Below, piece by piece: positions 17,141 through 21,466 of a DNA stretch of 64,000 nucleotides; position 1 is the stretch's first letter; every line of letters begins with the position of its first letter. The translations under genes and the position numbers were made by a program. Below the pieces are notes generated by a model that was not told the DNA's origin, searched no databases, and saw only the letters and a list, made by a program, of their open reading frames with translations. Source of the stretch: Deltaproteobacteria bacterium RIFCSPHIGHO2_02_FULL_44_16 (GTDB taxonomy: Bacteria > UBA10199 > 2-02-FULL-44-16); the NCBI GenBank assembly GCA_001798185.1, contig MGRM01000009.1, positions 85,745 to 149,744 of the forward strand. Reading direction: 5' to 3'.

Positions 17141-17530
17141 ATGCGTCACATTTCAGGTTTTACGCTGATTGAACTGATCGTTACCTTGCTTCTTGTCGCG
17201 ATTCTTGCGGTCGCGGCTCTTCCCCGTTTTATGAATCTCAGCACCGAAGCTGAAAACTCGAATGAAGCTGCTGTCGTCAGTGCTCTCAGAACTTCACTTC
17301 AGATATGGAAAGCCAATGATATGCTCCAAAATGGAGGGAGTGGCGCTTATCCTCCAGAACTCGATAGTAATGCGAATAGCAGTCCTTGTGCTTCGTGTTT
17401 CAGTACTCTCTTAGATTATGGAGTCACCGACAACAGTTGGTGGCGTATTCATGCAACACAGTACAGTTTCAGCGATGGAACAGATACCACAATTTATACG
17501 TATGACCCTGTCGCAGGGACGTTTCAATAA
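17141..17530 (+). CDS. Type IV pilin / pseudopilin-like protein with a prepilin-type N-terminal cleavage/methylation domain
   Basis: 'GFTLIELIVTLLLVAILAVAALP' class III signal peptide motif (G-F-T-L-I-E). Confidence 0.6.
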   Translation: MRHISGFTLIELIVTLLLVAILAVAALPRFMNLSTEAENSNEAAVVSALRTSLQIWKANDMLQNGGSGAYPPELDSNANSSPCASCFSTLLDYGVTDNSWWRIHATQYSFSDGTDTTIYTYDPVAGTFQ

Positions 17531-17537
17531 TTTCTTT

Positions 17538-17945
17538 TTATTTCTCTAAAAATAAAGAAATTGTTTTGTAGAGTTTTTCGGCTGTCGCGAAAGCTTGTGC
17601 AGCATCGGTTTTATTGGGGAGACGATGAGGAAAACTTCCCGGAATCCCGTCGGGATATCGAGTTGGAGCGTAGTAAAGATTGAGCACCATCAGCGGTTCC
17701 TCAAAAACTTGGAGTATTTCTTCATTCACAGGAAGACATATTCGAAACAGTTCATTGAGATCATGTATTTTTTTAAACGAAATAGCGTGAAAATGAAGAA
17801 AGGCTTTCAATAATTTTTCAGCACATTGTTGAGCATGAAAACAGGCTTGTGAATAAATTCCTTCTTTGGAAAGAACATGCGCTGCTTGCAAATCCTCTCC
17901 TGCAAAGACTAGCCATTCAAGCGCCAGATCACGCTGCTTTGTCAT
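17538..17945 (-). CDS. HEPN domain protein (toxin partner of the HEPN/MNT module)
   Basis: HEPN-like helical protein (PF05168-type, '…AHVLSKEGIYSQACFHAQQCAEKLLKA…'). Overlaps the upstream MNT gene by 17 nt. Confidence 0.55.
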   Translation of the reverse strand: MTKQRDLALEWLVFAGEDLQAAHVLSKEGIYSQACFHAQQCAEKLLKAFLHFHAISFKKIHDLNELFRICLPVNEEILQVFEEPLMVLNLYYAPTRYPDGIPGSFPHRLPNKTDAAQAFATAEKLYKTISLFLEK

Positions 17946-18444
17946 AGAGCACTTTTCCTTTTCCCTTTATCTCTTCCGTAAAAAAAGGCCGTTCACTTTT
18001 CTCAGCATCAGCCCATTCCTTTGGCGTATAGACAAAAAAATCACACGCAAGCTTCGGACGAATGAGCTTCACCACTTCTTTTTGTCGATCCCAAAATCGT
18101 TTCTTCGTCTGCTTGATGATGACTAAATCGATGTCACTGCTTTCGTGAACTTTTCCCGCGGCAAGCGAGCCAAAAAGAATAATTTTTTCTGGCTGATATT
18201 CAGCAGCAAGTTTCGTGACCATACGCAAAAGCTCCCCCGTCAACTCACGCTCACGGATTGAAACCGTATCAAGCGCACGTTGAGTGAGCTTCTCAAACAC
18301 GTCGCAGCCAACAAGAACTAAGGTGGGTTTCCCATGTTGCGTTAAGATCACCGGTTCTTTTGCTTCCAGCACGCGCTCAATGAGCTTTCCCGGTTCCCGC
18401 TGCATTTCCGTAGCGGTGGCTAAATGTTCTGATTTGAGTTGCAT
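17929..18444 (-). CDS. Minimal nucleotidyltransferase (MNT) with an N-terminal Phd/YefM-like antitoxin domain
   Basis: 'ILFGSLAAGKVHESSDIDLVII' (GS…SDIDL) MNT motif. The N-terminal ~60 aa ('…PVILTQHGKPTLVLVGCDVFEKL') resembles Phd/YefM. Confidence 0.55.
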   Translation of the reverse strand: MQLKSEHLATATEMQREPGKLIERVLEAKEPVILTQHGKPTLVLVGCDVFEKLTQRALDTVSIRERELTGELLRMVTKLAAEYQPEKIILFGSLAAGKVHESSDIDLVIIKQTKKRFWDRQKEVVKLIRPKLACDFFVYTPKEWADAEKSERPFFTEEIKGKGKVLYDKAA

Positions 18445-18456
18445 ACGCCTCCTGTA

Positions 18457-18488
18457 TTACGTATAAGATTATGTATTTTTATACGTAA
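18457..18488. promoter_or_regulatory. Palindrome TTACGTATA…TATACGTAA in the promoter region of the MNT/HEPN operon (candidate autoregulatory operator)
   Basis: attacgtataagattatgtatttttatacgtaa lies just upstream (on the minus strand) of the MNT start. Confidence 0.3.
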
Positions 18489-18721
18489 AAATACAACTTC
18501 TTTTTTAAGGAGAGAAATATCGCGAAAACTTTTTTAAAAGGGCACCTCTGAGCAGACGGAGATTCAGATTATTTTTATCCCTCAGGGAATACAGACAGTA
18601 GGAATTTTTGCAGAAAGTCCGACAGGACTCCATTTTTTCCCTCCACCATCATTATGATACGGTCATCAATCGTGCATTCACTGAATTCTTGACACGGAAG
18701 ATCAGTTCGTCGAAAACGCGA

Positions 18722-21466
18722 ATGGCTATGACCATCTCTCTTCATCCCACAAATGTCGTTTATATTGAGCAGCTTCTCCAACAGTATCGGGACAATCCTT
18801 CTTCTCTTGAGCCAACATGGCGCGCTTTTTTTGATGGGATTGAATTTGCGCGCGAAAATGGAAAGGATCTCGGAGACAAACTTCTTTTTGAGTTCAATGT
18901 GTTTCAACTCATTCAGGCGTACCGAGAAATGGGATTTCTCATTGCCGATGTTAATCCACTCGACCGCACCCCAAAGTCTCATCCTCTTTTGACATTGGAA
19001 CAATATCATCTCTCTCCCTTCGATCTCGATCGTCCCTGTGACGCAGGAAAACTTTTAGGTTTAGAAGCAGCCACCCTGGGCGATATTGTGGCACATTTAC
19101 GAACCTCCTATTGCGGGCCGGCCACTGTAGAATTTAGTCATATTGGAGATCCAGAACGTCGACTCTGGATTCAACAGCGCATCGAATCACATGAGCTTCT
19201 TCAATCTACTGAAGCAACAACGAAAAAAAATATTCTTCATCTTCTGGTTCAGTCTGAAACATTTGACATGACGCTTCACAAACGTTTCGTGGGACAAAAA
19301 CGTTTTTCCGGTGAAGGAAACGACGCCATGATTCCGATGTTGGCTGATCTTATCGAACAATCAGCACAGACACATACAGATGAAATCATTTTTGGCATGG
19401 CGCATCGAGGACGGCTCTCATTTTTAACCAATGTTCTCAAAAAAGATCTCAAAACTCTTTTTGCTGAATTCTTGGGAAATCTCGAAACAAATACAACTCC
19501 AGGCGATGGCGATGTGAAATATCATTTAGGTTTTTCAGGAGAAATCACAACTTCTTCTGGGAAGGAAGTTCACCTTTCACTTGTTCCAAACCCCAGTCAC
19601 CTCGAAGCCATTAATGCTGTGGTCATGGGCATGGTCCGTGCAAAACAGCAATGCAAAGATGACAGCACACGGATGAAAACACTCGCGGTGTTGTTGCATG
19701 GAGATGCTTCCTTTGCAGGTCAAGGAAATGTCTATGAAACCCTGAACATGTCGGGCTTACGCGGCTATACGATTGGTGGCACCATTCACGTGATCATCAA
19801 TAATCAAATTGGTTTTACCACAAACCCGAAAGATGCTCGATCAACTCCGAATACGACTGATATTGCCAAAATGCTTCAGACTCCCATCTTCCGGGTCAAT
19901 GCGGACGAGCCGGAAATGGCAGTACGATGCATGCGGCTTGCACTCGAATATCGCAACCTTTTTCAGGATGATGTTTTTATCGATCTCATGGGCTACCGTC
20001 GCTATGGACACAATGAAGGAGATGAACCCTCTTTTACCCAACCTCTTCTCTCTGAAAAAATTAAACATCACCCTCGTGTGGCTGAAATCTATACCGCTCG
20101 ACTTCTCGAAGAGGGAATCATCACCCAAGAAGAGGCGCAAGCCTTTCGTGAAAAACTTCAGACTTCCTATGAAACATTGATTGAAGAAGCAAAAAAAGCA
20201 AAAATTCCTCGCACCATGAGTGCGTTTGAAAAAACATGGCACGATTTTTCTCCTGTTCCTCAAACAGAAACTTTTTTTCAAACCATCGACACCGCAGTTG
20301 CCGAAAAAATTCTTCAGAAGATGGGAGATGAACTTTCAACCTCTCCAGAAAATTTTCAACCTCATCCAAAACTGATCCGTTTTTTTGAGGATCGAAAAGA
20401 GATGATCGACGGAAAACGCGGAATTGACTGGAGTTTAGGAGAAGCTTTGGCTTTTGGCTCTCTTCTTTGTGACAATTTCTCGATACGATTGTCGGGCCAA
20501 GATGTGGAACGAGGAACATTTTCGCATCGGCACTCTGTGCTTTATGACATCACCAATAATGAACGATATATTCCTCTCAATCATCTCTCTGAAAGAAAAA
20601 AAGATTATGAAGTGGTGAATAGTTTGCTTTCAGAATTTGCTGCCATGGGTTTTGAATTTGGTCAAAGTCTTGCTGATCCTTACAAACTCACCCTTTGGGA
20701 AGCACAGTTCGGTGATTTCTTTAATGGCGCCCAAGTGATCGTCGATCAATTCTTGGTAAGTTCAGCCATTAAGTGGCAACGCTCGAGTGGACTCGTTCTC
20801 CTGCTCCCTCATGGCTACGAAGGGATGGGGCCGGAGCATTCATCGGCACGACTGGAACGATTTTTACAGGCATGTGCGCAACAGAATATTCAAGTCTGCA
20901 ATGTCAGTACACCTGCACAATACTTTCATCTGTTGCGTCGTCAAATGCTTCGATCCTTTCGTCTTCCCCTTGTCATCATGTCGCCGAAAAGCCTTCTTCG
21001 ACATCCACGTGCAACTTCATCGATGGCTGAACTTACCACCGGAACCTTTTGCGAAATACTCGACGAAACGATGCTCAAGTCATCAAAAGAGATGAAACGT
21101 CTCATTCTTTGCAGCGGTAAAATTTATTACGAACTCTTGGCAGAGCGCGAAGCACAAAAAATAATGAATGTTCCGCTCATTCGTATTGAACAATTTTATC
21201 CTTTTCATGCGAAATATTTACAAACGATTTTTCAACGATATCCAAAAATAAAAGAAATCGTCTGGTGTCAGGAAGAAGCGCAAAACATGGGAGGTTGGCA
21301 TTTCATGAAAAATCAGCTTGTGCCACTTCTTGACCAGAAGGTGAAGCTTCAGTATGTCGGTCGTCCACCGCAAGCAAGTGTTTCGGGTGGTTATCTGCAT
21401 GTTCACGAAGCAGAACAAAAACGAATCGTCACCACCGCATTCAGCGATCTTGAAGGAGCACTATGA
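18722..21466 (+). CDS. sucA: 2-oxoglutarate dehydrogenase E1 component
   Basis: ~915 aa; the N-terminal region aligns with SucA ('…VYIEQLLQQYRDNPSSLEPTWRAFF'); transketolase-like ThDP domains. Confidence 0.85.
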   Translation: MAMTISLHPTNVVYIEQLLQQYRDNPSSLEPTWRAFFDGIEFARENGKDLGDKLLFEFNVFQLIQAYREMGFLIADVNPLDRTPKSHPLLTLEQYHLSPFDLDRPCDAGKLLGLEAATLGDIVAHLRTSYCGPATVEFSHIGDPERRLWIQQRIESHELLQSTEATTKKNILHLLVQSETFDMTLHKRFVGQKRFSGEGNDAMIPMLADLIEQSAQTHTDEIIFGMAHRGRLSFLTNVLKKDLKTLFAEFLGNLETNTTPGDGDVKYHLGFSGEITTSSGKEVHLSLVPNPSHLEAINAVVMGMVRAKQQCKDDSTRMKTLAVLLHGDASFAGQGNVYETLNMSGLRGYTIGGTIHVIINNQIGFTTNPKDARSTPNTTDIAKMLQTPIFRVNADEPEMAVRCMRLALEYRNLFQDDVFIDLMGYRRYGHNEGDEPSFTQPLLSEKIKHHPRVAEIYTARLLEEGIITQEEAQAFREKLQTSYETLIEEAKKAKIPRTMSAFEKTWHDFSPVPQTETFFQTIDTAVAEKILQKMGDELSTSPENFQPHPKLIRFFEDRKEMIDGKRGIDWSLGEALAFGSLLCDNFSIRLSGQDVERGTFSHRHSVLYDITNNERYIPLNHLSERKKDYEVVNSLLSEFAAMGFEFGQSLADPYKLTLWEAQFGDFFNGAQVIVDQFLVSSAIKWQRSSGLVLLLPHGYEGMGPEHSSARLERFLQACAQQNIQVCNVSTPAQYFHLLRRQMLRSFRLPLVIMSPKSLLRHPRATSSMAELTTGTFCEILDETMLKSSKEMKRLILCSGKIYYELLAEREAQKIMNVPLIRIEQFYPFHAKYLQTIFQRYPKIKEIVWCQEEAQNMGGWHFMKNQLVPLLDQKVKLQYVGRPPQASVSGGYLHVHEAEQKRIVTTAFSDLEGAL

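Follow-up and report, generated by a model that had tools for sequence, protein, structure and literature searches.

How might a HEPN/MNT module control its own transcription? The Class II modules of this kind are the most abundant toxin-antitoxin-like (TA-like) pairs in archaea. The question is raised here by a two-gene locus in a 64,000-nucleotide stretch of the genome of Deltaproteobacteria bacterium RIFCSPHIGHO2_02_FULL_44_16 (contig MGRM01000009.1; the whole stretch is called the window, and positions are counted from its first letter). The upstream gene encodes a minimal nucleotidyltransferase (MNT) with an N-terminal extension, and the downstream gene encodes a HEPN protein. Makarova et al. 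(2009) pointed out the absence of a DNA-binding component from HEPN/MNT, and raised the speculation that a trans-encoded protein supplies it (PMC2701414). Yao et al. (2015) reported that the Shewanella MNT SO_3165 has no predicted DNA-binding domain, yet binds its own promoter and represses it 1.6-fold (PMC4621449). Anantharaman et al. (2013) made no mention of Phd or YefM (PMC3710099); a 2024 paper on the Legionella structure did not address transcription; and NetFlax missed HEPN-MNT altogether.

The reading favored here, with a probability of about 0.7, is that the locus is a mobile, autoregulated Class II HEPN/MNT module, whose upstream protein joins two antitoxin designs in one chimera. 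No description of a Phd/YefM-MNT fusion was found in the literature searched, which left most subscription journals outside its coverage. The architecture is apparently undescribed so far; it is built entirely from known parts, and is no new kind of system.

A Phd/YefM domain fused to a nucleotidyltransferase

The first-pass annotation of this DNA had described the first ~60 residues of the upstream protein (171 residues; Table 1) as Phd/YefM-like, and two profile libraries agreed above their curated thresholds. Pfam placed PF02604 (PhdYeFM_antitox) at residues 10-64 with 38.3 bits (gathering cut-off 29.8), and NCBIfam matched TIGR01552 (phd_fam, prevent-host-death family) with 36.0 bits (cut-off 20.8). 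The AlphaFold model of residues 1-55 alone had a predicted local distance difference test score (pLDDT) of 89.5, and the secondary structure of the domain in the AlphaFold2 model is beta-alpha-alpha-beta-beta-alpha. In a Foldseek search with the model of residues 1-55, the best 50 PDB matches were all Phd/YefM-fold antitoxins (template modelling score, TM, 0.6-0.8; root-mean-square deviation, rmsd, 1.1-2.2 Å), including P1 Phd on its operator (4zm0, 4zm2), S. aureus YefM-YoeB on DNA (7v6w), VapB46, RelJ, and RelB2. The YefM chain 2a6q_B was matched with a TM of 0.79 and an rmsd of 1.6 Å. BLASTP gave no alignment of the domain with E. coli YefM, a result that is uninformative next to the decisive profile and fold matches. 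One relative, MBI4211180.1, is annotated by NCBI as a 'type II toxin-antitoxin system prevent-host-death family antitoxin'.

The C-terminal part is a nucleotidyltransferase. Pfam matched Polbeta/NTP_transf_2 (PF18765/PF01909) at residues 77-169 with 40.4 and 36.5 bits, both above the cut-off. The GS…SDIDL motif read earlier is present in the form GSx10DxD (LFGS-LAAGKVHESS-DID; G92 S93 ... D104 I D106). In an alignment of 25 fusion sequences, G92, S93, D104, D106, and a third acidic residue, D135, are invariant. Judged by this catalytic motif, the MNT domain looks active. Both halves are conserved in the alignment, with the N-terminal consensus LTELQRxPGK...ITQHGRP and the MNT consensus PEKIILFGSLAxGxVxESSDIDLVIIKKTxKRFWDRQKE...DFFVYTPEEW. 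The AlphaFold2 model of the whole protein has a mean pLDDT of 87.4; the N-terminal domain (residues 8-58) is joined to the first long MNT helix (63-83), and the folded MNT has block pLDDT values of 89-96 across residues 61-150, lower toward the C-terminal end. PDB matches to the C-terminal domain include 2rff, the Legionella MNT (8xeh/8xeo), HI0073 (1no5), and the Shewanella MntA (7bxo); 7ae9 was also matched.

Table 1. Features of the module and its promoter in the window
Feature	Position	Strand	Basis or remark
Phd/YefM-MNT fusion open reading frame (ORF)	17929..18444	minus	single 171-residue frame, internal stops = 0, ATG start
Phd/YefM-fold domain, residues 1-62; predicted dimeric DNA-binding domain	18259..18444	minus	PF02604, TIGR01552, fold search
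C-terminal minimal nucleotidyltransferase domain, residues 63-171 + stop	17929..18258	minus	Pfam PF18765, PF01909; Foldseek matches
HEPN protein, 135 residues, PF05168 ('HEPN-T' / Class II)	17538..17945	minus	Pfam, 89.7 bits
17-nt overlap ATGACAAAGCAGCGTGA, MNT stop / HEPN start	17929..17945	minus	ORF coordinates
Shine-Dalgarno GGAGG	18448..18452	minus	3 nt (18445-18447) before the ATG at 18444; also in L007, L152, L010
Operator box 3, TACGTA, between -10 box and ribosome-binding site	18458..18463	minus	conserved position
Putative -10 box CATAAT	18468-18473	minus	17 nt from the -35 box TTGTAT
Operator box 2, TACATA, overlapping the putative -10	18470..18475	minus	centre 12 bp from the centres of boxes 1 and 3
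Operator box 1, TACGTA, palindromic hexamer within the promoter spacer	18482..18487	minus	conserved position
Putative -35 box TTGTAT	18491..18496	minus	weak in the window; TTGACA, TTGATA or TTGATT in homologues

A search over 5.8 billion proteins returned about 24 clusters of fusion proteins (P0001-P0024; 169-186 residues, 41-100% identical), with full-length coverage and both Pfam domains. The next matches were ordinary MNTs of 105-130 residues, which align only to the C-terminal ~63%. The earlier statement that typical MNTs have ~100 residues and no extension therefore describes most relatives; a minority carry other N-terminal extensions. It might be argued that separate phd and mnt genes were merged by a frameshift, an assembly error or a lost stop codon, and that the palindrome upstream arose by chance. 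Metagenome assemblies do contain errors, and one locus from the same organism (L001) has split suc genes. But the identical 171-residue protein is encoded on 19 contigs from independent samples, the clusters share the continuous architecture and a conserved linker helix down to 41% identity, and the promoter pattern described below appeared in 0 of 100 shuffles. This explanation is refuted, and the ORF is one gene, not two.

Two side observations concern these records. In L001 (169-5837; ANAN16-1 assembly), sucA and sucB are each split (517+416 and 165+199 residues), and L002-L005 and the window have both genes intact; errors of assembly or sequencing in the L001 sample are the probable cause of the split. 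The SucA of the window is 100% identical to an NCBI protein from an uncultured Rifle-aquifer 'Deltaproteobacteria' MAG. The exact fusion protein of the window (P0001) is listed from JGI, Logan, and ENA sources only, none from NCBI, and the NCBI record may leave the fusion gene uncalled or called with a different start.

The origin of the N-terminal domain was approached with a metagenome scan using this domain alone (9-sequence alignment). It returned 60 loci: two fusions and 58 standalone Phd-type antitoxins of ~85 residues, 31-48% identical to the domain. ParE/RelE-like toxin ORFs lie downstream of the standalone relatives in 7 of 10 inspected loci, which indicates that the fusion took its head from genuine type II antitoxins. 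The part of a classical Phd/YefM antitoxin that contacts the toxin is its disordered C-terminal tail. By sequence comparison, the MNT appears to have taken the place of this tail. One standalone antitoxin (L095; ORMF010456988.1, ~1452-2100) has no ParE-like partner; a separate MNT gene of another (RLALFGSV...SDVDVLVEF) subfamily follows ~50 nt downstream. This locus could represent either a TA island or Phd+MNT in unfused form.

A putative three-box operator that moves with the module

The first-pass annotation had reported a palindrome in the promoter region. Both arms were found, TTACGTATA at 18457-18465 and TATACGTAA at 18480-18488. This inverted repeat corresponds to boxes 1 and 3, which flank box 2 in a set of three TAC(G/A)TA hexamers at 12-bp phasing. 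The pattern TAYRTA-N6-TAYRTA-N6-TAYRTA has a single occurrence in the window.

Upstream regions of 12 loci were aligned on the conserved TTG triplet of the -35 box. The layout recurs with some drift: a -35 hexamer, 3 nt, box 1, 6 nt, box 2, 6 nt, and box 3, with the Shine-Dalgarno sequence or the start codon directly downstream. The TTG triplet is placed 3 nt before box 1 in 11 of the 12 loci, and 2 nt before it in L155. Boxes 1, 2, and 3 of L152 are the same as in the window (TACGTA / TACATA / TACGTA). They read TACGTA / TACGTA / TACGTA in L007, TACATA / TACATA / TATGTA in L010, TATGTA / TACATA / TATGTA in L092 (with TTGACA at the -35 position), and TACGCA / TATATA / TACGTA in L155. Box 3 is degenerate in L008 (TACATA / TACATA / TGTGTA) and in L093 (TACATA / TACATA / CATGTA). 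The box sequence tracks the subfamily of the N-terminal domain: ...ATATEMQREPGK proteins have TACGTA outer boxes, and ...VPLTELQRSxxK proteins have TACATA or TATGTA boxes. The YefM operator consists of two palindromic TGTACA hexamers, 12 bp centre-to-centre (6 bp between), over the -10 box, and is conserved among yefM-yoeB homologues (PMC1802561). The fold of the domain, together with a three-box promoter array that moves with the module, supports the earlier suggestion that a predicted DNA-binding domain had been joined to the MNT.

The leaders differ among these loci. The window, L007, L152, and L010 carry a GGAGG leader. In about half of the homologous loci (L008, L093, L009, L011, L153, L154, and L155), the distance from box 3 or the -10 box to the start codon is 2-8 nt and a Shine-Dalgarno sequence is absent, which suggests leaderless or very-short-leader mRNAs. 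In the window, the module promoter is divergent from sucA (2-oxoglutarate dehydrogenase E1), across positions 18445-18724. The sucA start is the TTG at 18608 by the ORF list vs near 18728 by the identical NCBI protein; the operator lies ~240 bp from the 18728 start.

Other DNA-binding heads on the same MNT clade

The N-terminal extensions were surveyed in the best 150 representatives of the MNT clade. Xre-type helix-turn-helix (HTH) heads were found in P0124 and P0157, HTH_17 heads in P0148 and P0155, a ribbon-helix-helix (RHH)/DUF6290 head in P0153, a winged-helix head in P0214, and additional Phd-like heads in P0141, P0143, and P0026. Extensions without a Pfam match occur on relatives of ~200 and of 350-420 residues (P0127, P0146, P0150, P0151, P0133, P0145, and P0164). 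The idea that a Phd domain had been added onto the MNT stands as a real fusion, but DNA-binding fusions are not unique to Phd in this clade. These convergent fusions show selection for a cis DNA-binding domain on the MNT. Such swapping of modular heads is well known among type II antitoxins, and also from HicB. As a side observation, P0134 (640 residues) carries an Eco57I-type restriction-modification methylase and a TaqI_C specificity domain fused to a C-terminal MNT of the clade, and so links the Class II MNTs to restriction-modification systems.

These data bear on whether the Phd/YefM domain binds DNA at all. It could instead serve only as a dimerisation scaffold, or bind a trans-encoded toxin of the Doc, YoeB or ParE type, with the hexamers being the site of another regulator or part of an AT-rich promoter. 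Dimerisation is obligatory for the N-domains of Phd/YefM, and some homologues have degenerate boxes. The canonical MntA, without a recognisable DNA-binding domain, still binds its own promoter weakly (PMC4621449). But the toxin-binding tail of Phd/YefM is missing here, replaced by a folded MNT (pLDDT above 85); the array follows the module into unrelated genomes with exact 12-bp phasing, and its sequence changes in step with the subfamily of the N-domain. Moreover, Xre, RHH, HTH_17, and winged-helix domains occupy the same position in sister MNTs, a variety that favors DNA binding over a purely structural role. A non-DNA-binding head is thus very unlikely, and the predicted autoregulatory domain of the chimera is retained below.

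Distribution and mobility of the fusion

Eleven further fusion loci were collected, nine via proteins (L007-L011 and L152-L155) and two via the metagenome scan (L092 and L093). A PF05168-type HEPN gene lies directly downstream in every fusion locus with downstream sequence; L093 ends inside the fusion gene. The flanks are unrelated between loci: sucA and a prepilin-like gene in the window, and elsewhere PrkA/SpoVR, ParA, Lgt/signal peptidase II, MazG/MurJ, or a cobalamin adenosyltransferase. The composition profile showed no GC anomaly over the module, and hence no sign of recent acquisition. In L153 (2355-2927) and L154 (2416-2970), the HEPN gene overlaps, at its stop codon, the beginning of a gene of the cob(I)alamin adenosyltransferase family (PF01923); in this subclade, one transcript may carry both the module and a housekeeping gene.

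HMMER, run exhaustively against 1.84 billion 50%-identity representatives (E <= 0.001), identified 13,784 MNT relatives, and the Phd+MNT architecture was present in only about four of them (P0014, P0015, P0141, and P0143). The module as such is very common; the fusion is a rare yet conserved variant of it. The closest unfused MNT relatives are 51-57% identical over the domain and come from many bacterial and archaeal phyla. The same HEPN type is encoded immediately downstream of 67 of the 94 MNT ORFs of unfused relatives, and no recurrent DNA-binding gene was found upstream of them. A contig profile scan used C-terminal patterns only; its best 80 loci were unfused MNTs, and it has no bearing on the absence of the fusion from species representatives. 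In a neighbour-joining tree of MNT domains, there are two Phd-fused clades and separate Phd fusions (P0141 and P0143). The tree is poorly resolved (~100 residues, no support values), and leaves one versus several fusion events undecided.

The HEPN partner and the class of the pair

Two classes of HEPN/MNT modules have been distinguished (PMC7641770). Class I pairs a DUF86 HepT carrying the RX4HXY motif with MntA, and is the characterised type VII system; Class II pairs a PF05168 HEPN with a PF01909 MNT, which has GSx10DxD, and its HEPN lacks RX4HXY but has a conserved tyrosine. The 135-residue HEPN protein of the window matched PF05168 as its sole HEPN family in Pfam, and its nearest solved relatives in PDB sequence matches are TT1696 (1ufb), 1wol, and TM0613 (1o3u). 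By these sequence features, the window pair is assigned to Class II, not to type VII HepT/MntA. The pair had been called a HEPN/MNT toxin-antitoxin pair: the pairing itself was confirmed, and, as a consequence of Class II membership, the toxin, antitoxin, and AMPylation roles are ones that we infer.

An alignment of six partner proteins gave the invariant HEPN residues E43, K44, H61, D62, L63, R96, Y97, P98, D99, and R108. The tyrosines Y92 and Y97, the latter in an RYPD motif, are invariant among the same proteins. The protein fits the 'HEPN-T (PF05168)' group as Anantharaman et al. described it, with the canonical His replaced and a possible contribution from a different conserved His (PMC3710099). 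In Class I, the tyrosine that MntA AMPylates lies beside the active site of HepT (PMC7641770, PMC8138530). By analogy, Y97 of the invariant RYPD would be the best candidate for a nucleotidylated residue.

The reported 17-nt overlap with the downstream HEPN gene was confirmed (Table 1). An overlap of the same length occurs in six other loci (L007-L011 and L152); L153 and L154 have 11 nt, and L155 has 29 nt. Translational coupling of the two genes is likely. On the other side of the HEPN gene, a 129-residue protein with a prepilin-type N-terminal methylation motif (GFTLIELIV; 17141-17530, plus strand) converges on it, with the stop codons 7 nt apart. An AT-rich inverted repeat at 17526-17565 spans this junction; it was considered as a terminator and rejected, being no stabler than shuffles (z = -1.09).

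A different function of the pair has to be weighed at this point. The two proteins could form a two-subunit nucleotidyltransferase, with a catalytic MNT and a catalytically 'dead', substrate-binding HEPN acting on a third-party substrate (a small molecule, a protein or a nucleic acid), and with the Phd domain autoregulating the operon. Kanamycin nucleotidyltransferase and HI0073/HI0074 are precedents, and 1no5, the nucleotide-binding domain of the HI0073/HI0074 nucleotidyltransferase, is among the structural matches of the MNT. The HEPN protein lacks the RNase motif, and the HEPN fold serves as the substrate-binding domain of pol-beta-type enzymes; Makarova et al. were undecided between toxin-antitoxin and antibiotic resistance (PMC2701414, PMC3710099). 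On the other hand, TA antitoxins are almost the only users of the family to which the head belongs, and its nearest standalone kin pair with ParE/RelE. In gene order, overlap, and mobility, the locus looks like a typical TA module. The conserved R96, Y97, D99, H61, and R108 suggest a functional site in the HEPN protein, and a genome-scale screen, as relayed in PMC3710099, reported that motif-less HEPN proteins are still toxic. With its antitoxin-derived head and TA-like genomic behaviour, the locus makes a two-subunit enzyme the less likely interpretation, and we consider it unlikely.

Proposed mechanism and its weak points

The chimeric, autoregulated module may work as follows, starting from the domain composition, the intact motif, the conserved overlapping gene pair, the phased array, and the mobility described above. 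The Phd/YefM domain would dimerise and bind each palindromic hexamer. Occupancy of the hexamers over the promoter spacer, the -10 box, and the transcription-start region would repress the operon, as YefM and Phd do on their own operators. The MNT enzyme would stand in for the disordered toxin-binding tail of classical Phd/YefM. It would bind the HEPN protein and most probably nucleotidylate the conserved tyrosine (Y97 of RYPD), giving an inactive form, in analogy to type VII MntA/HepT; the overlap would couple the translation of the two proteins. By binding the MNT domains, the HEPN protein may also link adjacent dimers on the DNA and thereby tune repression. Free HEPN, without the canonical RNase motif, may act as a non-canonical RNase or bind RNA.

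Several points weigh against this reading. Neither Rx4-6H nor RX4HXY was found in the HEPN sequence or in the six-partner alignment, so RNase activity and toxicity cannot be assumed. The MNT domain scored 30.1 bits against the NCBIfam MntA_antitoxin equivalog NF047752, below the cut-off of 60. For Class II HEPN/MNT there were 'no biochemical studies' as of 2020 (PMC7641770). In L009, L011, L153, and L154 the 12-bp phasing is kept, and the box sequences are diverged or weaker. A generic promoter scan did not call the window promoter because its -35 box is weak (8/12), which leaves positional conservation as the ground for proposing a promoter here. For the N-domain, DNA binding is likewise predicted from the fold and the conservation of the operator.

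A bolder extension of the mechanism is conceivable, though doubtful. The Class II modules might be hybrids of type II and type VII, in which an enzymatic antitoxin repeatedly recruits swappable type II heads; in the Phd-MNT proteins, operator occupancy would then be set by the state of the enzyme-toxin complex (HEPN binding and/or nucleotidylation). If this is true, conditional cooperativity would be driven by a covalent modification cycle, and not by mere toxin:antitoxin stoichiometry.

The Phd-MNT family would offer an unambiguous cis solution, with a readable operator, to the question of how HEPN/MNT modules control their own transcription. A Phd fusion in the antitoxin position, combined with TA-like mobility, amounts to independent 'guilt-by-fusion' evidence: it points to the MNT as the antitoxin or regulator and to HEPN as the effector, and bears on whether the Class II (PF05168) pairs are TA systems. 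The module is compact (~0.95 kb, with a 30-bp operator), and would be a convenient model for Class II biochemistry. It provides an experimental handle on the regulation of Class II HEPN/MNT; the current understanding is not overturned.

Comparison with known systems

PADLOC reported a weak similarity of the MNT domain to the candidate system PDC-S09 and nothing for the HEPN protein, so no named defence system is indicated; Rfam gave no matches in the whole window.

The closest relatives are the Class II HEPN/MNT modules (COG2250/COG1708; TT1696 1ufb, TM0613 1o3u, 1wol). They share with the window pair the same two Pfam families, an MNT gene in the 5' position, a short overlap, the GSx10DxD motif, a HEPN without RX4HXY but with a conserved tyrosine, and a patchy mobile distribution. 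The usual Class II proteins are single-domain and roughly <150 residues long; the window HEPN (135 residues) fits this description, whereas the two-domain MNT of 171 residues, with its 62-residue Phd/YefM head and matching three-box operator, does not.

The type VII HepT/MntA systems (Shewanella SO_3166/SO_3165, Aphanizomenon, Legionella) likewise have the MNT upstream of the HEPN, the GSx10DxD motif, and a similar MNT structure. Neutralisation by an enzyme that modifies a toxin tyrosine, in type VII by oligo-AMPylation, is probably a logic shared with the window pair. However, the type VII HEPN belongs to DUF86/PF01934 (or PF08780) and has RX4HXY, whereas the window HEPN belongs to PF05168 and lacks it. 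SO_3165, with its 1.6-fold repression, has no recognisable DNA-binding domain; the window MNT has a dedicated, predicted one.

The Phd/YefM type II antitoxins (YefM-YoeB, Phd-Doc, Axe-Txe, RelJ/RelB2) share the N-terminal fold and the position of the antitoxin gene before the toxin gene. As in the window operator, the palindromic hexamers of YefM lie 12 bp centre-to-centre over the -10 box; the window has three boxes with a TACGTA or TACATA core, vs two TGTACA boxes for YefM. The disordered toxin-binding tail is replaced by a folded MNT enzyme in the window protein. The partners of Phd/YefM are YoeB, Doc, ParE, RelE, or PIN toxins, whereas the partner in the window, as in every fusion locus with downstream sequence, is HEPN.

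FhepTA (Shewanella SO_1440; PMC13000451) is another recent architectural variant of HEPN/MNT. In FhepTA, a Class I toxin and antitoxin are fused together without a DNA-binding domain; in the window, the HEPN is separate and the MNT bears the head. HicB has an unrelated fold and neutralises by binding, not by enzymatic modification, but the principle is shared: a non-DNA-binding neutralising core gains swappable RHH or Xre DNA-binding domains at its N- or C-terminus (PMC2701414).

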